This document shows, one piece after another, positions 18,534-58,879 of a stretch of 64,000 bases of DNA. Under the pieces are notes generated by a model. It did not search any database. It was not told the origin of the DNA and saw only the letters and a list, made by a program, of their open reading frames with translations. Source of the DNA: Escherichia coli. Lineage in GTDB: Bacteria; Pseudomonadota; Gammaproteobacteria; Enterobacterales; Enterobacteriaceae. The position numbers and the translations under genes were made by a program. Every line of letters starts with the position of its first letter. Within the stretch, counting starts at the first letter, position 1. Where the stretch lies: the NCBI GenBank assembly GCA_025336725.1, contig GCA_025336725.1_3647.1, one strand, 5' to 3'.

Positions 18534-19118
18534 TTAGTTAACATCAATAGCACGACCAGACTGGTTGGCAATAGCCTCATCATTGGAGGTAGCAATAACA
18601 CCAGAGTATTCGCGCTCATCTGGAGCAAGCGTCCAGGTATTGCGGTTAATGGTTTGTTCTGCCTCAGTCATCAGCAGATCTTTATCCTGAGTCAACAGAG
18701 AGCCTACAGGGATCGGGTTTTCCATCTCAGGACCAGCATACTGGTTCCACCATGTGGCATCTCCGGTTCTAGGCAATCTGAAGTTGATCAGGTAGTACAG
18801 TTTATTAGCCCACTTAATCCAACCCTCATCATCACAGAGAGAGGTTGTCCCAGAATCAGGCTGTGGGTAGGTGAACTGATCAAGACCTACGAAAGCCAGC
18901 CTTACAATCTCGTTCTCTTTGGTAACAACCTCAAAGAACGCTTGGTATGTTCTAGATCTTCGATCCATGGTAGACTGGAAGTTTATGATGTTTAGCACAT
19001 CCGGCTCTTGTCTTGCCACTTCCATAATCTTGTTATCAAGAACAGTCTTCATGACCTTCTTGCTGAGAAAGTCCATATAAGGGAGCAAACAGCTCGTCAG
19101 CAGCCAGCTCCCTTCCAC
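18534..19118 (-). CDS. hypothetical baseplate-associated protein
   Basis: 194 aa ORF between the spike gene and the fibre cluster; true start may be an internal Met. Confidence 0.35.
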   Translation of the reverse strand: MEGSWLLTSCLLPYMDFLSKKVMKTVLDNKIMEVARQEPDVLNIINFQSTMDRRSRTYQAFFEVVTKENEIVRLAFVGLDQFTYPQPDSGTTSLCDDEGWIKWANKLYYLINFRLPRTGDATWWNQYAGPEMENPIPVGSLLTQDKDLLMTEAEQTINRNTWTLAPDEREYSGVIATSNDEAIANQSGRAIDVN

Positions 19119-21332: not shown

Positions 21333-21878
21333 TTATTTTCCGTTAACTTTGTTGTAGTTCCCCTGCTCAGATGGGACTATGGTGGAAGGTCTTCCATATT
21401 CCTGATAATACCAATCTGCAGCCGATTGGGTAACACCGTTTTCATCTGTCCACATCATGGATTTGTATGGCTGCCACTCTTCTGCAGCATTTGTGGACGC
21501 GGTGTCTGCAAATGCCCCTGTGTCTCTCTTGTTACCTACGTTACTACCATTCTTGCAATCGTTGACAGCCCCTTTTTGCTGGGTCTTGCCGACCTTCTTG
21601 GGGTTGCTGTATACAGTTGCATTAACAACCTTGTTCAAGTAGAATGTGCGGAATTCTGTAAGTTCCACATCAAACACCATTGCAGCACCCTCACCAACAG
21701 ACTTGTTGGCAGAAAGACTGGTTATAATGTAGTTTTCAAGGAGTCTCTCTTCAGTAACTAAAGAAACCAACTGCCGCTTATTAATGATCTCGTCAAAGTT
21801 TCCAGTGCAGCGCCGCAAGTCGCATAGACGCTGCAGGGTTTTTAGAGTCAGTATTCCTGTCAATGTAGTTTTGCTCAT
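21333..21878 (-). CDS. hypothetical structural protein
   Basis: 181 aa ORF; its first 86 nt overlap the upstream ORF in another frame, so either the start is downstream or the two form one frameshifted gene. Confidence 0.35.
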   Translation of the reverse strand: MSKTTLTGILTLKTLQRLCDLRRCTGNFDEIINKRQLVSLVTEERLLENYIITSLSANKSVGEGAAMVFDVELTEFRTFYLNKVVNATVYSNPKKVGKTQQKGAVNDCKNGSNVGNKRDTGAFADTASTNAAEEWQPYKSMMWTDENGVTQSAADWYYQEYGRPSTIVPSEQGNYNKVNGK

Positions 21879-22312: not shown

Positions 22313-22637
22313 TGCACAGTTTATTACCAAAGGTCGGTAGACATGAAGTTGATATCTTTATTGTTCTCCCACTCAAGTTTTGCATCAAATATTTTGTTAA
22401 ACTCGCCCTCATCTATTGAAATCGTGATTTTCCCATCACTGATCTCTAAAGGTAGCATTTCCATAGTTCTTAATTGAGAAGCAAAACCGAGGCCACCCCG
22501 GCAACGGAAAATCCCGCCCCATTAAGGTGTCCAAAGGATTAACAAACCCGTTACCTCAAATGAAAGTATCTTTGCGAATCATATCGCTGATAGCATCCAG
22601 CTGCTGATTTCTTTCACTTAGTGGGTTGTAACGGTCA

Positions 22638-23099
22638 TTAAATAATTCCGGCGCTTAGTATTATACCGATAATGCCCAGCTTACCGAGCAGACCAACTTT
22701 GCCACCAGGTGTCTTGAGGCCACCCCCACCTTTTCCTGCCGGAGCTCCACCACCAGATCCTTCTGTAGTAGCGGCACCAGCTGCTGCTGCTGCTCCAGCT
22801 GCACCCCTTAGAGAGTTAAGGAATTTAAAGGTTTTTACAAGCATGGATGCCATGACAAAACCTTTTGTTAGGGCGTTGACTACCAGCATGATGGCAGCAG
22901 CAAACCCTGCCCATTTAGCATAGCTAAAGGTGTCATGAAGCTCTTCAGAATATTCCTTCGTCTTAGCTGTTATGAATCCCCATTTAATCCCCCATTCAAG
23001 GAAAAACATGCGGATCTTGACTATAGTGTTGTTTAGTTCACCAACTACCCAGTTAAGGCCTCTCACAAACCCGCTAACAAAATCACCAGAGGCATCCAC
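22638..23099 (-). CDS. probable C-terminal fragment of the tape measure protein (hydrophobic, Gly-rich)
   Basis: 153 aa; hydrophobic segments plus GAAGAAAAAGAATTEGSGGGAPAGKGGGG...GIIGIILSAGII, as at tape-measure C-termini; lies downstream of the 415-aa helical ORF in another frame. Confidence 0.35.
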   Translation of the reverse strand: MDASGDFVSGFVRGLNWVVGELNNTIVKIRMFFLEWGIKWGFITAKTKEYSEELHDTFSYAKWAGFAAAIMLVVNALTKGFVMASMLVKTFKFLNSLRGAAGAAAAAGAATTEGSGGGAPAGKGGGGLKTPGGKVGLLGKLGIIGIILSAGII

Positions 23100-23161
23100 A
23101 CAAATTACGGGGAGTCTCGCCAGTGCGAATCAGTGTATAATGAACTCTGTTAATTCATCGC

Positions 23162-23371
23162 TTAACGGGTGAACAGCTTCTGACAGGATAATTCGATGAA
23201 GGTTTTCAGTCTGTTTTCTGCCAATGCGTTAGACTTCTGCATTCTTTCATAACCGGCTGCAGATGCCTCGTTCATATACTTAGCCACATACTTCATGATC
23301 TTGGCTGTCTTAACCTCACCTTTCTTCATCATGTCCATGAACTGATCCATGGACAGTTCAGAAAAGACCAA
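23162..23371 (-). CDS. short ORF between tape-measure fragments (possible frameshifted segment)
   Basis: 69 aa ORF (TTG start; first ATG is internal at MDQFMDMM) between the 415-aa and 153-aa tape-measure-like ORFs. Confidence 0.25.
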   Translation of the reverse strand: MVFSELSMDQFMDMMKKGEVKTAKIMKYVAKYMNEASAAGYERMQKSNALAENRLKTFIELSCQKLFTR

Positions 23372-23414
23372 AAGCCTCTTTGGTGGCTTTGATAAAGGTT
23401 ATGCGGGCAATGCT

Positions 23415-24662
23415 TCAGCAAGTTGTTGCTTCAGTTCTTCGGACATTACCTGTCCTTTCCCGAGCAATTTGCTGGATTGCCATGATACCACGCTGGTATT
23501 TTACCTCATCGGCACCATAAGCAGCAGCATACTGTGAGTATGCAGAAAACAGCTCATGCACTTCCTGATTTGTCATCTGGTTTTTGGCGTTTACCGACAT
23601 CTGGGCGTAACCTTGAAGACCAGATTTGAGATCAAAACCAAGACGCATAGCCTCTTGCTGGACAAACGCAACCTCACTGTTGGCTTTGTTTGGATCTCCA
23701 GTAACAGCAGTAAGAGCAGCACTTGCCCCCTCCATCATGTGACCAGATCTGTTCACAGCAGTAAATCCAGAGAAAGCCGTATACGCAGCTGTTGCATTAA
23801 TAACAGACCTACGTAAGTCTCTCATGGCATCACCAAGTGTAAGCGTTTGGCTGGTGGCGCTTTTAAATCCAGACTGCAGAGCTGACAGGTGGGCGTTAAA
23901 GGTTGACTTTTTCATCTCCCCGCGAGCAAACCTGGACTCTAACTCTGAGTATCCAGGCAAGCTTCCACGGAATCCGGCTCCATACTTGGCAGAAAGTCTT
24001 ATCGCAGAGTTGTAGAGGTGGGTTCTCCTTGCCTCACGATCCGACATAAGCCTATTATCCATGCCAGCTTTACTGTCCCTTCTTAGCTGTCTATGATAAC
24101 GATTCATAGCAGCTGTCTGAGCTTTCACAAGGTTAGGGTCGGAAGCCACACCACCCATATTAGGGTTACCAGGGATATACTTGAAAGATTTGGCATTAGC
24201 CAAAACTCTTGCCTTAGGTGCCTTATAACCGCCGTAAGACACTGGTGTAGATTTGGCAGCCTTTTTGGCCTCTTTAGCTTGCTGCTGGTAGAACTTACGC
24301 ATCCTAGCCATTTCTGGATTTTTAGCGGTAAGATTGCCTACAGCTTGTTTACGTCTCGCGTTCTCCCTACGTTCTATTGCGGCCCTTACTGCAGCCTCTT
24401 TCTTGGCTTGTGCTACGCTCTCCCTGTGCAGTTTAGCATTTGCCTGAGATTGCTGTCTGGCAACCCGCTGCATTGTTTGCTGGGTTTTAACAGCCACTGC
24501 CTGCCATCTACTCATCGGGTTGGCTGAGTTAAAATCCTCGCCAAGTTTCCTGAACTCCCTCCCAATACTGCGAATTTTCTCTACAGCTTTTTTGTAGGAG
24601 GAGTTCTCTATCTCAAAGCCAATCTTGTTGACTGTTGTGGCAACTATTTTGTTTGTAGCCAT
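23415..24662 (-). CDS. tail tape measure protein (N-terminal and central part)
   Basis: 415 aa, Ala/Lys/Arg/Gln-rich helical sequence; canonical position after the chaperone pair and before the baseplate genes; RBS GAGGAAAG before ATG. Confidence 0.45.
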   Translation of the reverse strand: MATNKIVATTVNKIGFEIENSSYKKAVEKIRSIGREFRKLGEDFNSANPMSRWQAVAVKTQQTMQRVARQQSQANAKLHRESVAQAKKEAAVRAAIERRENARRKQAVGNLTAKNPEMARMRKFYQQQAKEAKKAAKSTPVSYGGYKAPKARVLANAKSFKYIPGNPNMGGVASDPNLVKAQTAAMNRYHRQLRRDSKAGMDNRLMSDREARRTHLYNSAIRLSAKYGAGFRGSLPGYSELESRFARGEMKKSTFNAHLSALQSGFKSATSQTLTLGDAMRDLRRSVINATAAYTAFSGFTAVNRSGHMMEGASAALTAVTGDPNKANSEVAFVQQEAMRLGFDLKSGLQGYAQMSVNAKNQMTNQEVHELFSAYSQYAAAYGADEVKYQRGIMAIQQIARERTGNVRRTEATTC

Positions 24663-25523: not shown

Positions 25524-26762
25524 TTAACCTTTCAACCAATCCAAGTATGCAGGATCATTTTTACCTTCATCGCTGTGCCATTCGAAGCGAGAGTTGCCGC
25601 TGTTTTCAAGGATATAGCAGCCTGCATTTTTAGCATTCCACTCTTGTGTTTTCTCAGGATCGTATAAGGACTCGTCCAACCCTAAATGCTTCAGTGTCTC
25701 TTGGATGTTTGACTTCCACCAAGCCTGTCTTGGCATTCTGCCACCACGGTAGCTCCAGAAGCTGGTAGATACCTGATCGTCCTCTGCCAAAATCCAGCCA
25801 TCCTCCTCCTTATAGGACACACCTGTGAAGTAATCCCTGTCAAGGAAGGATTGAACATGATCCATCTTAAACTCTTTTTGGATATGCTTAAACAGCTTAC
25901 TACGCCCACCAGGAACGTTACAGCTTGTTGCATACCTTACCATGTCCCACATAACGAAAGGGGTTACCTTTTGATCTCTGTTTTTCAATACCTTAAAACT
26001 CATACAAGCTACCAGCTCACCGTCAGATGTAAACAGACCCTTCTTCACTTCCTTGGCGGGAGCATACCCTTGAATGTGGTTTTTCTCCATAAAGTCACGG
26101 TAAGTTTTATTGTCCACATCCCTAACTGTGCACTTTCTGGCATAGACGGTCTTCTCGTCTTTGACTCCTAAAGCATTCTTAAGATATCTCTCAATGATAG
26201 GTCTTTTCCGAGCATCCTGCCAATCACAATCCCATATAGACAACATGCGAATACCTTGTTTTTCACAGGCCTTCCTTTTCAGGATGTGGTACCATTTCCC
26301 CTTACTATCCACGGAGTGCCAATAGGCACCATTATATTCCACAGCAAGCTTAAGCTCCGGGATATAAATGTCCAGCTCCATCTTTTTCTTGGAAGGATCT
26401 TTAAAGTTGTCCAGAATCCGCACGTTCTCTTCAATATCTCCGCTATAGACACTTTTAATGAACGTCAGGATCTCTTTTTCACCATTAGACTGATTGCGAC
26501 AGCAACGAGGGCATCCTTGTCCTTTCCCGTAATGGAATTCAGGACGCTGCATGAAGATATTCCCACACTCTTTGTGGCGCATCATCATAGGCGTTGAGGC
26601 GTTCACATAAGAGTCTTCAAAATACTCATAATCCCCACCATGAACTTCTACACATCTCTCAACTATTTCTTGGAAGCTAGGAACTTTTTTCACAGAAACA
26701 GACCTTGCTGCGCAAGTCTTGCACCCTTGCCCAGATAAATGCTTGCTGGGTTTCTGATACAT
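25524..26762 (-). CDS. homing-endonuclease-like protein (Zn-ribbon N-domain plus restriction-endonuclease-like core)
   Basis: 412 aa; N-terminal VHGGDYEYF...C...GQGCPRC zinc-ribbon; then GEKEILTFIKS...LDIYIPELKLAVEYNGAYWHS resembling Vsr/DUF559-type nuclease folds; inserted between tail genes. Confidence 0.45.
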   Translation of the reverse strand: MYQKPSKHLSGQGCKTCAARSVSVKKVPSFQEIVERCVEVHGGDYEYFEDSYVNASTPMMMRHKECGNIFMQRPEFHYGKGQGCPRCCRNQSNGEKEILTFIKSVYSGDIEENVRILDNFKDPSKKKMELDIYIPELKLAVEYNGAYWHSVDSKGKWYHILKRKACEKQGIRMLSIWDCDWQDARKRPIIERYLKNALGVKDEKTVYARKCTVRDVDNKTYRDFMEKNHIQGYAPAKEVKKGLFTSDGELVACMSFKVLKNRDQKVTPFVMWDMVRYATSCNVPGGRSKLFKHIQKEFKMDHVQSFLDRDYFTGVSYKEEDGWILAEDDQVSTSFWSYRGGRMPRQAWWKSNIQETLKHLGLDESLYDPEKTQEWNAKNAGCYILENSGNSRFEWHSDEGKNDPAYLDWLKG

Positions 26763-34209: not shown

Positions 34210-34229
34210 CTCAGCAGGTTCCTGTCTAC

Positions 34230-34715
34230 TTAACAGATCAGGTTCCCTTCTTTATCGAAGAGATCAGCGGTTACTTGTTCAAAAATCTGTTGTGTTTTTA
34301 ACGAACTGCTCTGATCTACCACGTTAAGCTGCTTGCCTTCTTTTGCAGCTTTATGAATGGTCACGTTATCACAACGCTCTTCCAGCCATGCAATGCAAGA
34401 CTCTGCGTCAGCTTGCGCCCATTCCCAATCAGGATGCTCTTTAGCCCAAGCTTCCTCTTCAATCTCAAAACCAAGCATGTGTGCGAGTGCTTTGGCATCG
34501 TCATACCACATATCGAAGAAACGACGCAGGTATTCTTCAAAACTCAGCTCCACAGTAACTTGGCGAAGTGCCTTAACAATATCGTCTGTTAACTGCTCAG
34601 GCTGAAGATCACTCTTCATCAAAAGAGATACAGGTCTGTTGTTAGCGCTATAGCCTTGCGCCTTATGGCACAGGGCAATCCCCTTCTCTTTAATAGTGAT
34701 TGTTTTTTCAGACAT
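34230..34715 (-). CDS. hypothetical head morphogenesis protein
   Basis: 161 aa ORF in the head module. Confidence 0.35.
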   Translation of the reverse strand: MSEKTITIKEKGIALCHKAQGYSANNRPVSLLMKSDLQPEQLTDDIVKALRQVTVELSFEEYLRRFFDMWYDDAKALAHMLGFEIEEEAWAKEHPDWEWAQADAESCIAWLEERCDNVTIHKAAKEGKQLNVVDQSSSLKTQQIFEQVTADLFDKEGNLIC

Positions 34716-36860: not shown

Positions 36861-38003
36861 TTAGATAAAACGCTTGAACATAGAGGGTGATGAGATTGAT
36901 GGAATCACACAAGGCAGCGCTACCTCCTCTTTCTCCAGGAAATTAATCGCAGAAGCTACACAGTCGGCCCAGTCGTCTTTTCTGTTAAATGTTGATCTTT
37001 CCCCGTTGAATTTTTCAAGTTCAGTCAGAAATGCTTCCAGAGTATCAGGATGAAAACTGGATTTTACAATCCTCACCATCCCTTGTTGGGCAAGATTGGC
37101 AAAAGGTGAGAACCTTGTCAGTTTAGATTTGTTGGAAGGCATTGGGTCTTCTTCAACCCTGAACCCTTCGGCGAGCAAGGATCTGGATGAGGTTAAGAAC
37201 TCACTCTTACCTGCCTGACCAGGGTCCACAGAAAATACGATTATGCAATCATCTCCATCAAACTGCGCCTGTTTTCTGATGATCACATCTCGTTCCCCAG
37301 CCTTTTTACAGAACTTGCCTTCCAGACCTGTGGAATACCTCCCGTCATCCACGTTCTCAGGACAATAGTCCCCAGATAGGTAATAAAAGCCGTCGCTATC
37401 TTTACTTACCTTAACACTGGCGGTAAAGTCAGGAAATTTATTACCGGAAGTTCTCTCGGTTCCTGCCTTATCCCATGCCCTGCAAGATACTGATCCAAGA
37501 GGTACTCTATCGGCATCACGAAGGAAAGATCTTTGGAAATAGTTTGCACCCTCAGGTTTGGCAAACCAGTTGCCATGAAGAAGCTGGGCTTTTTCCAGCT
37601 CTGGCAGACCTTCAAGGAAAGCAAGGTATTCTGGGTTGTCTCTCAGGCATACAGGATTATCGAAAATTGTTGCGCCTATAAACGAGAATGACAACGGTCT
37701 TGGCTTGATTTCCACACCTAGTCCATTGACCGTAGTGTATTTCTCTATTAACTCCTCTTTAGAGTCTCCCCAGATAAACTCACCGTCGCGTCGGATAAAA
37801 TATCTTTTCTTACCACATTTCTCCGGATCTGGATACCCTTCATCGTCCAACCACCACCTAACCAGTTTGGCAAGCATGTGTTCTGAGTCGGGGTTACAAC
37901 TGATAACCATTCTTGATGGATACTTTGACTGAGATCGCAGACGAGACATCAAATAGTCTATCTGCTCCCATTCGAATTGCGTGCCTTCATCGAAGCAAAC
38001 CAT
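36861..38003 (-). CDS. terminase large subunit, C-terminal portion (Walker B plus nuclease domain)
   Basis: 380 aa; starts ...MVCFDEGTQF (hydrophobic run plus DE = Walker B). In the same reading frame as the upstream 125-aa ORF, separated only by TAA at 38031-38033. Confidence 0.6.
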   Translation of the reverse strand: MVCFDEGTQFEWEQIDYLMSRLRSQSKYPSRMVISCNPDSEHMLAKLVRWWLDDEGYPDPEKCGKKRYFIRRDGEFIWGDSKEELIEKYTTVNGLGVEIKPRPLSFSFIGATIFDNPVCLRDNPEYLAFLEGLPELEKAQLLHGNWFAKPEGANYFQRSFLRDADRVPLGSVSCRAWDKAGTERTSGNKFPDFTASVKVSKDSDGFYYLSGDYCPENVDDGRYSTGLEGKFCKKAGERDVIIRKQAQFDGDDCIIVFSVDPGQAGKSEFLTSSRSLLAEGFRVEEDPMPSNKSKLTRFSPFANLAQQGMVRIVKSSFHPDTLEAFLTELEKFNGERSTFNRKDDWADCVASAINFLEKEEVALPCVIPSISSPSMFKRFI

Positions 38004-38030
38004 GGTGTATTCAAGTCCTTGATGGTTAGT

Positions 38031-38408
38031 TTATCTTGGACATACTCCATGTGGCAGTATTTTACAACGGCCTCCTTTTTTGCTCCTGTCCCACTTGCCA
38101 GTGCTCGGATCAAACCGTGGAAAAATAAACTTATGATCCTTCTCTCTGAACTTTGGTTTAATGTTTTCAGGCAGATCACTGTAAATAGCTACTGCTTTAG
38201 GCCATAGCCCACCCTCACCTTCCAACTGTGGAGTTGTTCTTCGGAACATAACCACAGAGCTGTGTGGGTCATCAATAATTTTAAGTGGCATTAGCTGCAA
38301 GAGGAACGACTTGCCAGAACCGGCTGCACCTCCGATCACCAAAATATCTGCATCGTTCTCAAGGATCATCTTCTGCTTTTCAGAACACGGTCCGTAAATC
38401 TTAGACAT
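38031..38408 (-). CDS. terminase large subunit, N-terminal ATPase portion (Walker A)
   Basis: 125 aa; Walker A VIGGAAGSGKSF; ends at an in-frame TAA 27 nt before the Walker-B ORF. Confidence 0.6.
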   Translation of the reverse strand: MSKIYGPCSEKQKMILENDADILVIGGAAGSGKSFLLQLMPLKIIDDPHSSVVMFRRTTPQLEGEGGLWPKAVAIYSDLPENIKPKFREKDHKFIFPRFDPSTGKWDRSKKGGRCKILPHGVCPR

Positions 38409-39508: not shown

Positions 39509-39585
39509 TGGTCTCCACGGAGTGATTCGAACACTCGACCTCCTGATCCCAAATCAGGCGCTCTACCAAGCTGAGCTACGCGGAG
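39509..39585 (-). tRNA. tRNA-Pro (anticodon UGG)
   Basis: Manual cloverleaf: 7-bp acceptor (one G-U), D-stem GCTC/GAGC, anticodon loop UUUGGGA, T-loop TTCGAAT, encoded CCA; 77 nt. Confidence 0.8.
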
Positions 39586-39594
39586 TTTATAATT

Positions 39595-39669
39595 TGGTGG
39601 CCCTGGGTGGAATTGAACCACCGTCTGGCGATTATGAGTCGCTTGCTTGAACCTTCCAGCTACAGGGCC
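39595..39669 (-). tRNA. tRNA-Met or tRNA-Ile2 (anticodon CAU)
   Basis: Manual fold: acceptor GGCCCTG/CAGGGCC, anticodon loop CUCAUAA, T-arm GGTGG-TTCAATT-CCACC, encoded CCA; D-stem only 3 bp; 75 nt. Confidence 0.65.
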
Positions 39670-39670
39670 A

Positions 39671-39746
39671 TGGTGCTGATGGCAGGACTCGAACCTGCAA
39701 CCTATTGATTACAAATCAATTGCACTACCAATTGTGCTACATCAGC
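39671..39746 (-). tRNA. tRNA-Thr (anticodon UGU)
   Basis: Manual fold: perfect 7-bp acceptor GCTGATG/CATCAGC, D-stem GCAC/GTGC, anticodon stem ATTGA/TCAAT, loop UUUGUAA, T-arm GCAGG-TTCGAGT-CCTGC, CCA; 76 nt. Confidence 0.8.
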
Positions 39747-39751
39747 AAAAA

Positions 39752-39850
39752 GGTGCTAGGCGATGGAATCGAACCACCTATGTATTCAACGACTACTTCG
39801 TCTATTTTCAGGATTAAAAATCCTCGCCCTTGCCAAAGGGCCTACCTAGC
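39752..39850 (-). tRNA. aberrant tRNA-like element (Lys-UUU-like anticodon loop, ~30-nt extra segment); possible pseudo-tRNA
   Basis: Good acceptor (GCTAGGT / GCCTAGC), D-arm (GCCC-N8-GGGC) and T-arm (GGTGG-TTCGATT-CCATC), but the anticodon stem is only 4 bp (loop UUUUUAA) and ~30 nt separate it from the T-arm; no encoded CCA; 99 nt. Confidence 0.3.
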
Positions 39851-39948
39851 ATATTATGCGAATCATGCTGCTAGTCGGCGATGACGACTGTAACATTTGT
39901 TAATCCGGTTCTGCTTCCGGAGCTCGCTTAATTTCATGATCCACGATC

Positions 39949-40038
39949 TGGCAGAGAGTAATGGAATCGAACCATCATCGAGGATATCTCAACGGGACGG
40001 TTTTCAAGACCGCTTGAGCACCATGCTCCCTACTCTCT
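39949..40038 (-). tRNA. tRNA-Ser (anticodon UGA)
   Basis: Manual fold: acceptor AGAGAGT/ACTCTCT, anticodon stem-loop GCGGT-CUUGAAA-ACCGT, ~20-nt variable arm with small hairpin, T-arm GATGG-TTCGATT-CCATT, CCA; 90 nt (type II). Confidence 0.7.
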
Positions 40039-40150
40039 TTTTATAAACAACACTGATAATGACACTGATTTTCGAACAGTTAGTGACTAGTATAAACGAC
40101 GATAAACATCAATGTCATTATCTATGTTATTTATCACAAATATGTAATTT

Positions 40151-40237
40151 TGGTGGGGAGTGATGGAGTCGAACCACCCGAGTCGCAATGACAATAGATT
40201 TACAGTCTACACCGCTACCCCTACGGTATAACTCCCC
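40151..40237 (-). tRNA. tRNA-Tyr (anticodon GUA)
   Basis: Manual fold: acceptor GGGGAGT/ACTCCCC, anticodon loop CUGUAAA, 15-nt variable arm hairpin (GTC-ATTGC-GAC), T-arm GGTGG-TTCGACT-CCATC, CCA; 87 nt. Confidence 0.75.
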
Positions 40238-40241
40238 GATT

Positions 40242-40316
40242 TGGCACCCCGTACTGGACTCGAACCAGTGTCAACGGCTTAGAAGGCCGCTGCTTTATCC
40301 ACTAAGCTAACAGGGC
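40242..40316 (-). tRNA. tRNA-Arg (anticodon UCU)
   Basis: Manual fold: acceptor GCCCTGT/ACGGGGT (two G-U pairs), D-stem GCTT/AAGC, anticodon stem GCGGC/GCCGT, loop CUUCUAA, T-arm ACTGG-TTCGAGT-CCAGT, CCA; 75 nt. Confidence 0.7.
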
Positions 40317-40607: not shown

Positions 40608-40708
40608 CNNNNNNNNNNNNNNNNNNNNNNNNNNNNNNNNNNNNNNNNNNNNNNNNNNNNNNNNNNNNNNNNNNNNNNNNNNNNNNNNNNNNNNNNNNNN
40701 NNNNNNNN
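40608..40708. other. assembly gap (run of N)
   Basis: Unresolved bases seen directly in the sequence. Confidence 0.99.
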
Positions 40709-41491: not shown

Positions 41492-41812
41492 CTAACCAAA
41501 GGAAAGTGTCTCATCAGTATCAACATCTACATCAATACTAGCAAGAACCTTATCTACAAGATAGCTGTCATCCTTTGGACTAGCTTCCTTAGTGCGAATG
41601 TAGTTGCCATCTTTCCCTGGTGACAACTCCTTCTCATCACCAACTCGCATGTCATCGTTTGGCGGTGTTAACCACTTATCTGGATGCTTACGATCACGAG
41701 CGTCCGAATGATTGCGCTGGAAACCTGGCTTCCACTTGAAAGTTTTCCCCATCTGTTCTTCATCCTGATAACGTTTTGCAATCTTTTCTCGGTCATGTTT
41801 GCGTGAGCTCAT
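41492..41812 (-). CDS. hypothetical basic protein
   Basis: 106 aa ORF; ATG preceded by GAGGAG RBS. Confidence 0.45.
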   Translation of the reverse strand: MSSRKHDREKIAKRYQDEEQMGKTFKWKPGFQRNHSDARDRKHPDKWLTPPNDDMRVGDEKELSPGKDGNYIRTKEASPKDDSYLVDKVLASIDVDVDTDETLSFG

Positions 41813-44924: not shown

Positions 44925-45533
44925 ATGAAACTTGTGCATGGTGTTGGTGTTAATGATGCAGACTATCCTGTCAGGGTTTTAGACAAGGATACCGGAAAGA
45001 GAATCATGTGTCCTTTTTATATGACATGGTCAAATATGCTAGGAAGGTGCTACCTTAAAAACAAGAAATTTGAAGCTTATGCTATGGTAGAAGTTTGTGA
45101 AGAATGGAAAATCTTCAGCAACTTTAAGCGCTGGATGGAAAAACAAGATTGGCGGGATAAATTTTTAGATAAAGATATCCTGTTTGAAAATAATCTTATA
45201 TACTGTCCAGAAGCGTGTATTTTTGTTCCTCGTGAAATAAACAACTTCTTTGTAGCAAGGGTACCACAAAGAGGGGAGTGTTTGATGGGAGTAAGAAGAA
45301 AAGGCCCATCTTTTGCTGCCTATTGCAAAGATGGGGTTAATGACACACAGGTTTATCTTGGAACCTTTCCCACGCAGATTGAGGCACATATGAAATACTT
45401 GGAATGCAAACTGCAACTTCTTAGAGACTTGATTAGAACTGTAGATGACAGTAGGTTGCTATTAGGATTACGAAGAATTGAGAGTAAGATAGTTTTAGCT
45501 TTATCTTCAAAAACACCGATAGAAAATTTTTAG
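44925..45533 (+). CDS. homing-endonuclease-like protein with AP2-type DNA-binding domain
   Basis: 202 aa; N-terminal YMTWSNMLGRCY...EAYAMVEVCEEW motif common to phage endonuclease-associated domains; C-terminal VYLGTFPTQIEAHMKY AP2-like segment. Confidence 0.45.
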   Translation: MKLVHGVGVNDADYPVRVLDKDTGKRIMCPFYMTWSNMLGRCYLKNKKFEAYAMVEVCEEWKIFSNFKRWMEKQDWRDKFLDKDILFENNLIYCPEACIFVPREINNFFVARVPQRGECLMGVRRKGPSFAAYCKDGVNDTQVYLGTFPTQIEAHMKYLECKLQLLRDLIRTVDDSRLLLGLRRIESKIVLALSSKTPIENF

Positions 45534-50894: not shown

Positions 50895-51357
50895 GTGGAA
50901 GACGGTCGTTTAATGAAGTCTGAACGCAGGCTTATTGTGCAGCTGATCCCAGAAACAGCTTGGTATAATAACCTACGAAACGCTGTGAAGAAGAGCGAGT
51001 GGGATAAGATCCGTAAGAAGTGCTACAGAGAGGCCAACTACACTTGTGAGGTGTGTGGCGGTAAAGGTAGCAAACACCCAGAATTAGTGTCATGAACTTT
51101 ACACTTTCGAAGGGGGTGATCGGCTTGTAGGACTGATAGCGTTGTGCCCAGACTGTCACACATCGGTGCATCCAGGGTTAGCAAATATCCGTGGAAAGTA
51201 TGCTCAGGCAGTTAATCAGTTGGCTAAGGTGAATAAGATCACCAAGGGTATGGCAGAGGCCTATTACCGAGACTGCTTTGCAGAGTGGCGTGAGCTTAGT
51301 AAAGTTCCAGAATGGAAGACTGACTTTTCGTGGATAGAGGGTTACCTTGATGGCTAA
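50895..51357 (+). pseudogene. HNH-type nuclease split by a frameshift near 51085-51095
   Basis: ORF 50895-51095 ends ...CEVCGGKGSKHPELVS; the next frame is open from 51088 and reads CHELYTFEGGDRLVGLIALCPDCHTSVHPG...; together they give a CxxC...H...CxxCH...H HNH signature. Confidence 0.45.
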
Positions 51358-53472: not shown

Positions 53473-54096
53473 GAGAGCGTCTATTATCCATAGACCAGTC
53501 GTTGACACACACAGCTTGTGTTGTATGGGACGATGGAAAGCCTGTTCATAAGGTTGTATTACGAACTCAAAGCTCATCTGCAAAAGAGAAGAAACCAGGG
53601 ACGGTTTCTTTTGCAACAGCTGCTGAGCGTATTGACTGGATCTGCAAACAGGTCAGATATTATATCCACACGCACGGAGTTGACACCGTGGTTATGGAAG
53701 GGCTTTCCTTTGGATCACGCGGGGATGCCACACGTGAACTGGCGGGTTGTTTTACGGTCTCGAAGTATGCTTTGGGATGCTTTAGCAGATTGTGAAAATG
53801 ACGGCCTGTTTAAGGTCCACACAGTAACACCGACAACCGCCAAAAAGTTTGCTCGTAGTCATCTTCCTGAAGAACTTGCTTTTGAGGAGAAGAAAAAGCT
53901 TGACAAAAAGACAGGTAAAGAGCATACTGTGAAGAAACCTGTTACGATGGATAAAAAGTTAATGGTTAAGGCCTGTGAAGTATCTGAACCAGGGTTTCTG
54001 GATGGGATCAATTTAAGATACAAGGTAAGGCCGATCTGCAGATGCCTACGGATAGGCAGGGCGCATCTGGAGGGATTATCGCAAAGCGTAAAATAA
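53469..54096 (+). CDS. RuvC-like resolvase-family protein, reading frame shifted near 53770-53800
   Basis: Frame A (53469-53795) has LLSIDQSLTHTACVVWDDG...VVMEGLSFGS (RuvC-like Asp/Glu motifs); frame A then hits stops while frame B continues ...LWDALADCENDGLF... to 54096. Confidence 0.35.
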
Positions 54097-54651
54097 GAAA
54101 GAAAGCTGTCAAAGCTCCCGTTCATAGCGGGTGGCTAAAAGATTCTAAGGACATAGCCAACTTTCGGAAAGAATTGTCAGAAGAGCAGGATGGCCTTGAT
54201 CCGATCTTGTGCGAGCCACTTCGTAAGCCTTGTTTAGATCATGATCATCTGACTGGTCGTTGCAGAGGTGTTTTGTCCCAATGCACTAATACCTTTGAAA
54301 GATATGTGCTTAAATACTGGATGAAATACTGTAGCGAGTATCAGGTGCAGTTTATCAGAGGCGTTGCGCCGGATGGCTGACTATCTGGAGAAAGACTACA
54401 GCGACTTCCCGCTCCACAAAAACTACAGAGACGATATGACAAAGTTCTTGAGGAGATGCTCTAAAGCCACAATTATTGCACGAGCAGAATCGGATCTCGA
54501 TCTTGTCATTAATCCAGAGTACACTAAGCATGAGGCTATTGAAGCCTACATGCAGGAGTTCATAAAGAAAACTGAGGAGAGAGACTTCTATGGGGATGAA
54601 AAAGGTATTCAATCCTTGCGATTCAGTTCTGATCAGGATGAAATACCGTAA
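54042..54651 (+). CDS. endonuclease VII-like resolvase (T4 gp49-like), reading frame shifted near 54365
   Basis: Frame A has QDGLDPILCEPL...CLDHDHLTGRCRGVLSQCTN (T4 gp49: QNGKCLICQREL...LDHDHELNG...RGLLCNLCN); after the stop at 54378-54380 the next frame continues ADYLEKDYSDF... (T4: VDYLEWLENLL). Confidence 0.45.
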
Positions 54652-57107: not shown

Positions 57108-57311
57108 TTGGAGGCCACAATGACACTAAAGTTAACAATTCCAGACAGCTTTTCAGAAAACTTTATCCCAGAAATGATGGATAAGATGCGATCATTGCTT
57201 GATCAGATCGAGGAAGCTGTTTGGGAAGACGATGCTGTAGTGGCTAACGAGCTGGTAGATAAGTGTAAAAGTATTATTGATGCAGTTGAAGAATACCACG
57301 GAGGTTTTTGA
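57108..57311 (+). CDS. hypothetical acidic protein
   Basis: 67 aa ORF with GGAGG RBS. Confidence 0.4.
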   Translation: MEATMTLKLTIPDSFSENFIPEMMDKMRSLLDQIEEAVWEDDAVVANELVDKCKSIIDAVEEYHGGF

Positions 57312-58879
57312 TGGATATTATTGTTCTTAATGCACCACCGTGCTGCGTCCCGAGTGGTACAGAGTTCCTCACCAAATCCGGGTGGAAAAGTATAGAAGAT
57401 TTTGATAATGATTTCGTGGCGGTGTGCGATAAATTTGGGGCAATGCATTGGGAGATACCTGAATTTATTGAAGGCAATACTCCAGTTTTTGAAAAGGGCG
57501 TTTTTGCCACATGGTCTATGGTTTTAACACCTAACCACAAAGTTCTGTATGAAAACAGAAGAGGATCAAGAATTGCTAGAGAGTGGTCAGAGATAACTTT
57601 GGAATCCAAAACTGGCTACGATGGATATATACCTGCCACCTTCCATCAAGAGTCTGGAGAGGATGTGGACGATTTTGACCTGCTTAGAGTTGCAATCCTA
57701 GCAGACTCTTCTGAGGTTAAAAACCGAGAAGGTGTGTTAATGTTTAATATTAAAAAGGACCGTAAAAAGGAGAGGCTGCGATACTTATTTAAAAGAACTG
57801 GAGTAACCTTTTCCGAAAAAGAGTTTGAGAGTATGCCTGGTTACACCCGTTTTTTCATTCACAACAGCCCTTTCATGAAGAAAGATGGTATACCTAGCCA
57901 CTGGTGGAATCTCTCTTCCAAGGCCAGTGAAAAACTACTAAACGAGATGCTGAAATGGGATGGGTGCGAGAAATACAAATCTTTCTCAACCACTTCTAAA
58001 GAGGAGGCAGATCTATTTCAGCTTTTAGCAGCAAAATGTGGGAGAAAGGCCAAAATTGAAATAGATAACTACAAAAGGGAGTGTGATGAAGAGAGCAGAA
58101 CTCGTAGCGTTTGCTATGCGGTAAAAATTCTAAAGTCAGACTCTTATTCGATGCGTAAAAGTGGCGGATATGATAATCCCGATAAAGCTTTTCAACCTTA
58201 CAAAGAGGAGTTACCTGGGGGTAAGTGTTACTGCTTTACCACAACAACCGGATTTTGGGTGGCAAGACAAAACGGTATGGTGTTTTTAACAGGTAACAGT
58301 GGAAAAGACCATATTGCAGATCTCTTGTTGGAAGCTATTCCTAACTCACACCACCGTGAGGTTAAGGAGATGCTATTCAGTGTGGCAATTAAGGCAGCTG
58401 GTGTAACTCCTCAGCTCTGGAATGCACTTTATGACCGCCACTACAAAGAAGAGCCTTGCCCTTTCTTAATGATAGACGGCAAGCATGTTTCTCCGCGAGA
58501 ATGGATGATCCATTGTAGTGAAAATCTGATTAAACCTATCTTTGGTGAAGATGCTTTCGGTAAAGCCGCAGTCGCATCTTTGAAGAAAGATTTCCCTGAA
58601 GGTAAAGGGGTTATTGTTTACTCCGATGGTGGATTCAAAGAGGAGCTGGCATGCCTTAGTGAGTACGCATACAGCACAGGTGGAGATCTGTTGTTGTTCC
58701 GTATTCACCGTGTCGGATATGACTGGGGAAATGATTCCAGAACCTATCTAAGTCTGGAAAAGAACGGAATAAAAGGGATTGAGTTTGATGTTGTAAACCC
58801 TGAAGGTGCACCTTGGGAATGTGCATCGGAGATTGTGTGCAAGTATATTGATGCTAAAGAGGCACAAGAAGAATGTTAA
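57311..58879 (+). CDS. dNMP-kinase-like P-loop kinase interrupted by an intein
   Basis: ATG 57311 after GGAGG. Exteins MDIIVLNAPPC + SGKDHIADLL... reconstitute a T4 gp1-like P-loop (T4: MKLIFLSGVKRSGKDTTADFI); the C-extein (193 aa) has further kinase-like segments. Confidence 0.5.
   Translation: MDIIVLNAPPCCVPSGTEFLTKSGWKSIEDFDNDFVAVCDKFGAMHWEIPEFIEGNTPVFEKGVFATWSMVLTPNHKVLYENRRGSRIAREWSEITLESKTGYDGYIPATFHQESGEDVDDFDLLRVAILADSSEVKNREGVLMFNIKKDRKKERLRYLFKRTGVTFSEKEFESMPGYTRFFIHNSPFMKKDGIPSHWWNLSSKASEKLLNEMLKWDGCEKYKSFSTTSKEEADLFQLLAAKCGRKAKIEIDNYKRECDEESRTRSVCYAVKILKSDSYSMRKSGGYDNPDKAFQPYKEELPGGKCYCFTTTTGFWVARQNGMVFLTGNSGKDHIADLLLEAIPNSHHREVKEMLFSVAIKAAGVTPQLWNALYDRHYKEEPCPFLMIDGKHVSPREWMIHCSENLIKPIFGEDAFGKAAVASLKKDFPEGKGVIVYSDGGFKEELACLSEYAYSTGGDLLLFRIHRVGYDWGNDSRTYLSLEKNGIKGIEFDVVNPEGAPWECASEIVCKYIDAKEAQEEC
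57344..58297 (+). mobile_element. intein (Hint domain with LAGLIDADG-like endonuclease segment) in the kinase P-loop
   Basis: Starts CVPSGTEFLTKSGWKSIEDF (Hint block A), has TPNH (block B), LAGLIDADG-like LLRVAILADSS and FQLLAAKCG, ends ...MVFLTGN followed by Ser +1; 318 aa. Confidence 0.5.

Follow-up and report, generated by a model that had tools for sequence, protein, structure and literature searches.

The large-terminase gene, terL, lies on the minus strand at positions 36861–38408 of the window, by which we mean the whole 64,000-nt stretch of DNA analysed here. The complete gene measures 1548 nt, the length of its intact homologues, and is interrupted by an in-frame TAA at 38031–38033 (minus strand), between the codons for the Walker A and Walker B motifs. 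The ORF upstream of the stop (38031–38408, minus strand) encodes 125 aa beginning with MSKIYGPC. It comprises true TerL residues 1–111, including Walker A (GGAAGSGKS), followed by 14 out-of-frame codons and the TAA; no database record was found for its product. The downstream ORF (36861–38003, minus strand; 380 aa) starts with MVCFDEG at an ATG that represents the internal Met136 of intact TerL, and contains Walker B (MVCFDE), the remainder of the ATPase and the RNaseH-like nuclease domain. An earlier note on this DNA had described the two ORFs as sharing one frame and being split by the TAA alone. This is indeed how the sequence reads (...GVCPR*TNHQGLEYTMVCFDEG), with nine sense codons lying between the stop and the second ORF. 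The A6 run to which the note had drawn attention upstream of the stop is present as well, appearing as T6 on the plus strand at 38076–38081.

Matches to the 1548-nt span, at 90–98% identity, were found in 121 phage records, nearly all of them Escherichia phages of the genus Vequintavirus. By these matches the window is assigned to Vequintavirus, as a genome segment of an rV5/FV3-like E. coli myovirus. Over 60 kb, its identity to both FV3 and Vequintavirinae sp. Aya is about 93%. Annotations of the relatives treat these 1548 nt as a single unbroken ‘terminase large subunit’ CDS, situated between the spanin genes and the portal gene. The window and the Vequintavirus phages rV5, FV3, Murica/EduardKellenberger and EPFV3 have in common the gene itself, its 1548-nt length, 95–98% DNA identity and the order of neighbours (i-spanin, o-spanin, terL, portal), whereas a pair of +1 and −1 indels and the resulting TAA are confined to the window. 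Among the matches are eighteen records designated ‘Campylobacter phage’ (e.g. MG065654). Their identity to the E. coli Vequintavirus terL of the window is about 95%, and their host assignment looks doubtful.

The window was aligned with four phage relatives and then with four metagenome contigs (eight relatives in all). Throughout, the length differences consist of exactly one inserted and one deleted base, located 44 bases apart. The earlier note had favoured a base-call error or compensating indels and had proposed alignment to intact terminases as the means of finding them, and the alignment bears it out. The insertion is at 38073 (minus strand; T on the plus strand, A on the coding strand), where GGGG has become GGAGG on the coding strand, adjoining the A6 run (AAAAAAGGGGCC to AAAAAAGGAGGCC), and the frame is shifted by +1. 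The deletion falls between 38028 and 38029 (minus strand). Here, coding AAGCTTAAC has been changed to AAAC-TAAC, i.e. CTTAAC reads CTAAC with one T of a TT dinucleotide lost, and the original frame is restored. Next to the deletion, at 38030, a G-to-A substitution is seen on the coding strand which is synonymous in the repaired frame (AAG to AAA, Lys). Across the deletion site, all relatives read AAGCTT, a HindIII site.

The 44 nt between the two indels (38029–38072, minus strand) are the relatives’ bases in the wrong register and match EPFV3, EduardKellenberger and WM exactly. They are translated as GRCKILPHGVCPR* in place of AVVKYCHMEYVQDKL. The upstream peptide that had been remarked upon as atypical is therefore nothing but an out-of-frame reading of DNA that is otherwise identical to that of the relatives. 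The TAA is a product of the same out-of-frame reading (GAT AAA CT read as A GAT AAA CT).

The allele is unique to the window. It was found in none of the 119 phage records matching a 96-nt stretch and in none of four metagenome contigs. Over this stretch the best of the 119 Vequintavirus records reaches only 94.8% identity (two indels and three substitutions), so that none of them carries the window allele, and in each of the four metagenome contigs the arrangement is intact. The insertion allele gave no exact match in metagenome contigs, viral contigs or genome contigs, the last of which contain no relative. The deletion allele gave no exact match in the viral contigs, a set from which the wild-type allele pattern is missing too and which is hence uninformative on either allele. 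A single uninterrupted frame is intact in all relatives examined and is broken in window terL as given.

Reversal of both single-base changes yields a TerL of 515 aa. This repaired protein shows no amino-acid differences from those of EPFV3 (EPFV3-03/2025) and EduardKellenberger, against 33 and 44 synonymous differences, respectively (pS 0.10–0.13, pN 0); relative to FV3 there is one amino-acid difference and there are 75 synonymous ones. Because the protein has remained virtually unchanged despite so many synonymous differences, the lineage has been under strong purifying selection. The break is not an evolved state, and the gene has no past in which it was either a pseudogene or recoded.

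In the repaired protein, Pfam Terminase_6N, the T4 gp17-type ATPase domain, is matched at 67.6 bits (cut-off 22) and Terminase_6C, the RNaseH-like nuclease, at 27.9–29 bits (cut-off 22.6). Terminase_6N spans both ORFs, and when the fragments are searched alone the 380-aa product scores 41 bits and the 125-aa product 16.7 bits, the latter being under the cut-off. Terminase_6C falls in the second ORF. Walker A (GGAAGSGKS) and Walker B (MVCFDE) occupy residues 26–34 and 136–141 of the repaired protein. A search by sequence for a terminase structure covering the scrambled segment gave no significant PDB match. As a member of the Vequintavirus TerL family the gene is otherwise normal, the uninterrupted frame being the sole defining feature in which it fails.

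The damage is not limited to terL. Every annotated FV3 protein was compared with the window, and indels were counted as window-specific if they were lacking in both FV3 and Aya. The pairwise alignments gave at least 70 small window-specific indels common to the FV3 and Aya comparisons, 47 of which are not multiples of three and lie within homologues of 14 genes. While about 50 genes among the FV3 homologues are intact, about a dozen conserved genes are frame-split or carry stops. The broken homologues include two tail-fibre genes, and structural-module genes of 325 aa, 303 aa and 238 aa are frame-broken. Worst hit in the whole window is the tape-measure gene (22327–24662, minus strand), whose pieces are distributed over three frames and contain several stops; its longest ORFs have 415 and 153 aa, as compared to 779 aa in FV3. 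It shows error-like clusters of indels of the same type, with clusters at 22496–23466. The homologues of FV3 ORFs 44, 48 and 61 (broken mid-gene), the ligase C-terminus, an HNH gene, ORF 90 and EndoVII are likewise affected, and the frame-breaking indel patches in these conserved genes are found at 19084–19112, 21791–21814, 34225–34232, 49266, 51085–51121, 53743–53766, 54015–54049 (net frame-neutral) and 54341–54346. In local alignments they appear as short scrambled patches with perfectly conserved flanks. Two further indel patches that were tested against the phage collection were not found outside the window.

In six genes whose halves lie in different frames, the halves retain 89–100% protein identity to FV3, most of them at least 95%. 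Among the genes that align to FV3 whole, in a single piece and free of indels, no in-frame stop was detected despite about 4000 substitutions relative to FV3. Selection has acted on the substitutions, but not on the indels. As a control, FV3 and Aya were compared with each other. They are more diverged (91.8% identity) and yet differ by 41 indels only (18 intergenic), against 106–111 between the window and either of them; 16 of the control indels are frame-breaking and coding, nine of these being situated in one divergent tail-fibre gene.

The window indels form 26 clusters. Only seven of these preserve the frame, roughly the one third that chance would give. The exact compensation seen in terL is therefore not evidence of selection. 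A second compensating +1/−1 pair, 17 nt apart and enclosing an in-frame stop, is present at 41500/41517 (minus strand) in the homologue of FV3 ORF071 and is the same kind of artefact as the terL pair. Within 10 nt of an indel, the density of window-specific substitutions is three times as high as elsewhere (6.7% versus 2.3%), as expected for locally poor sequence. Frame-breaking indels thus occur in many conserved genes, irrespective of reading frame and of coding status, in the manner of an artefact.

A run of 100 N at 40609–40708 stands where relatives (L009, L012) have about 480 nt and removes the first approximately 49 codons of the homologue of FV3 ORF068. Since 100 N replace some 480 nt of the relatives, the run looks like a scaffold gap of indefinite length and not like a mask of equal length. 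Six clustered tRNA genes (Pro, Met, Thr, Ser-tga, Tyr and Arg; 39509–40316, minus strand) are also present in the window, and the window-specific indels at 40023 and 40038 lie within the tRNA-Ser gene or at its boundary.

Because the allele is unique, the repaired protein is conserved, about a dozen other genes are broken and a scaffold gap is present, we infer from the assembled sequence, rather than from reads, that the terL stop almost certainly stems from errors made in sequencing or assembly, in a genome of draft quality (probability about 0.85). The indels would most likely have arisen during sequencing or assembly and not in the DNA itself. The true terL would be an ordinary uninterrupted gene of 515 codons. 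A spurious extra base would have been introduced at 38073, and one base would be missing 44 nt downstream, between 38028 and 38029, so that the 14 codons between the two errors would be misread, ending in TAA. That the two errors cancel each other would be due to chance only. Free of errors, terL would read AAAAAAGGGGCC at the first site and AAACTTAAC (or AAGCTTAAC) at the second.

In phage assemblies of draft or long-read type, indel errors give rise to apparent frameshifts and pseudogenes. The window resembles such artefacts in its small, clustered, frame-blind indels of 1–2 nt within conserved genes and in its N gap, but differs in that only about 40% of its indels are found beside homopolymers of three or more. 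Pure homopolymer errors were rejected as the cause, 29 of the 70 indels adjoining homopolymers of this length as compared to 21 ± 4 at random, which is a weak enrichment. The two terL indels are themselves unlike classic long-homopolymer errors, consisting of an A inside GGGG beside A6 and of a deletion in TT; this counts against the error explanation. Miscalls linked to Dam methylation at GATC were also rejected, with eight of the 70 indels located within 10 nt of a GATC versus 8.0 ± 2.7 at random. From the GATC and homopolymer tests, no particular platform or error mechanism is assignable.

Among the alternatives, the one that survives best takes the indels as real in the sequenced template, which would be a non-viable or defective genome in the form of defective variants sustained by co-infecting helpers in a high-titre lysate, of a mutagenised stock, or of a consensus drawn from a mixed metagenome population. 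The indels do stand in the sequence as given. In addition, the damage to many other genes fits a heavily mutated or chimeric template, and in the patches substitutions occur together with indels, a combination that does not always result from simple base-calling errors. We nevertheless regard such an origin as unlikely. A genome with a broken tape measure, a broken terminase and around a dozen conserved genes disrupted cannot propagate, while the halves of the broken genes are still 89–100% identical to the relatives at the protein level and the roughly 4000 substitutions include no nonsense change. Given the intact halves and the lack of nonsense changes, any real damage must have been essentially instantaneous and was never selected on. 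Damage of this kind is in practice indistinguishable from an artefact and is without biological consequence for the phage lineage. The probability left beside a sequencing or assembly error goes mostly to template damage that is real but was never under selection. The defective phage, which the earlier note had named in case the stop was real, is not needed as an explanation.

Far less probable is a functional interruption, in which full-length TerL arises from a +1 ribosomal shift near AAA-AAA-GGA-G and a subsequent −1 shift near GAT-AAA-C, or the TAA is read through, or the terminase is composed of two polypeptides, one with Walker A and the other with Walker B and the nuclease. The first shift site does possess an A-rich, slippery-looking A6 run and a newly created AGGAGG motif resembling a Shine-Dalgarno sequence. 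An ATG is located nine codons after the stop, and split terL genes are known in relatives, though there they are due to introns or mobile inserts (PMC7344957). However, recoding would require two independent and opposite shifts (+1 and −1) instead of a single event, and it would not account for the numerous frameshifts in other parts of the window that have no compensating partner. The arrangement is conserved in none of the 119 phage records and in none of the four metagenome contigs. Programmed recoding sites are conserved, and given this lack of conservation recoding is close to refuted.

Programmed frameshifting as found in phages (tail assembly chaperone G/GT; dnaX A-AAA-AAG) shares with the locus the A-run at the first shift site; in contrast, the window would need two opposite shifts, its site is unconserved, and the relatives read the A-run in frame. 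Transcriptional slippage on the A6 run would at best mend one of the two sites. Readthrough, put forward as a fallback in the earlier note, is not needed and would on its own be of no help because the 14 codons stay out of frame; the wrong residues would persist in a segment that is identical across three aligned relatives. None of the six tRNAs is a suppressor. Reassignment of TAA was considered and rejected, since no indel-free full-length FV3 homologue carries an in-frame stop and none of the six tRNAs has a TTA anticodon. Readthrough, recoding and a naturally split terminase are not supported. It is very unlikely that the double indel belongs to a viable phage which makes its TerL by two consecutive frameshifts, the first of them aided by the new AGGAGG, or as a two-piece ATPase whose Walker A and Walker B motifs reside on different polypeptides.

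A split of the window terL by an intron, an intein or a homing endonuclease can be dismissed, as there is no extra DNA and the 1548 nt are those of intact genes. Relatives that do carry terL inserts are 266–979 nt longer, with mobile inserts at two or more sites. In phage VB-EcoM-WM (L004, 1234–1458), terL is interrupted by a group I intron (Rfam RF00028, 92.7 bits); in contig SKEL01000041.1 (L009, 4378–5258), an insert of 884 nt that contains an EndoVII/HNH-like ORF of 196 aa lies directly after Walker B (MVCFDEG). For Pectobacterium phage CB7, splicing of the terL intron has been demonstrated by RT-PCR (PMC7344957). The Vequintavirinae terL genes that are split by introns or homing endonucleases, such as that of CB7, have the two-ORF appearance in common with the window. 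In contrast to these, the window has no insert, its ORFs are one stop codon apart, and their total equals the uninterrupted length. The insertion site in SKEL01000041.1 corresponds to window position 37983, which is 45 nt from the window’s deletion. A connection of the indels with this homing-endonuclease site, 45–90 nt away, was considered and is not needed, there being 25 other clusters across the window.

Inserts are found elsewhere in the window. Two HNH/homing-endonuclease ORFs at 25524–26762 (minus strand) and 44925–45533 (plus strand), belonging to PHROG 559 and PHROG 953, lie between conserved genes, within inserts missing from FV3. The homologue of deoxynucleoside monophosphate kinase (57308–58879, plus strand) contains a 319-aa in-frame insert within its P-loop, the junctions being NAPP/C...GN/SGKD in the window versus NAPPSSGKD in FV3. 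Its Cys start, terminal Asn and the following Ser suggest that it may be an intein. Pfam gave no match for the 319-aa insert, which matches the middle of PHROG 32482, a PhoH-like family.

If the record is annotated as it is, it will yield a false ‘split’ or ‘pseudogene’ terminase together with about a dozen other false pseudogenes, among them the tape measure, structural genes, EndoVII and the ligase C-terminus. The window is best handled as a draft, and odd ORF structures in it are to be compared with relatives before they are interpreted. The split terminase is almost certainly not a real biological feature; the main importance of the finding lies in data quality, and it has no bearing on the biology of the terminase.
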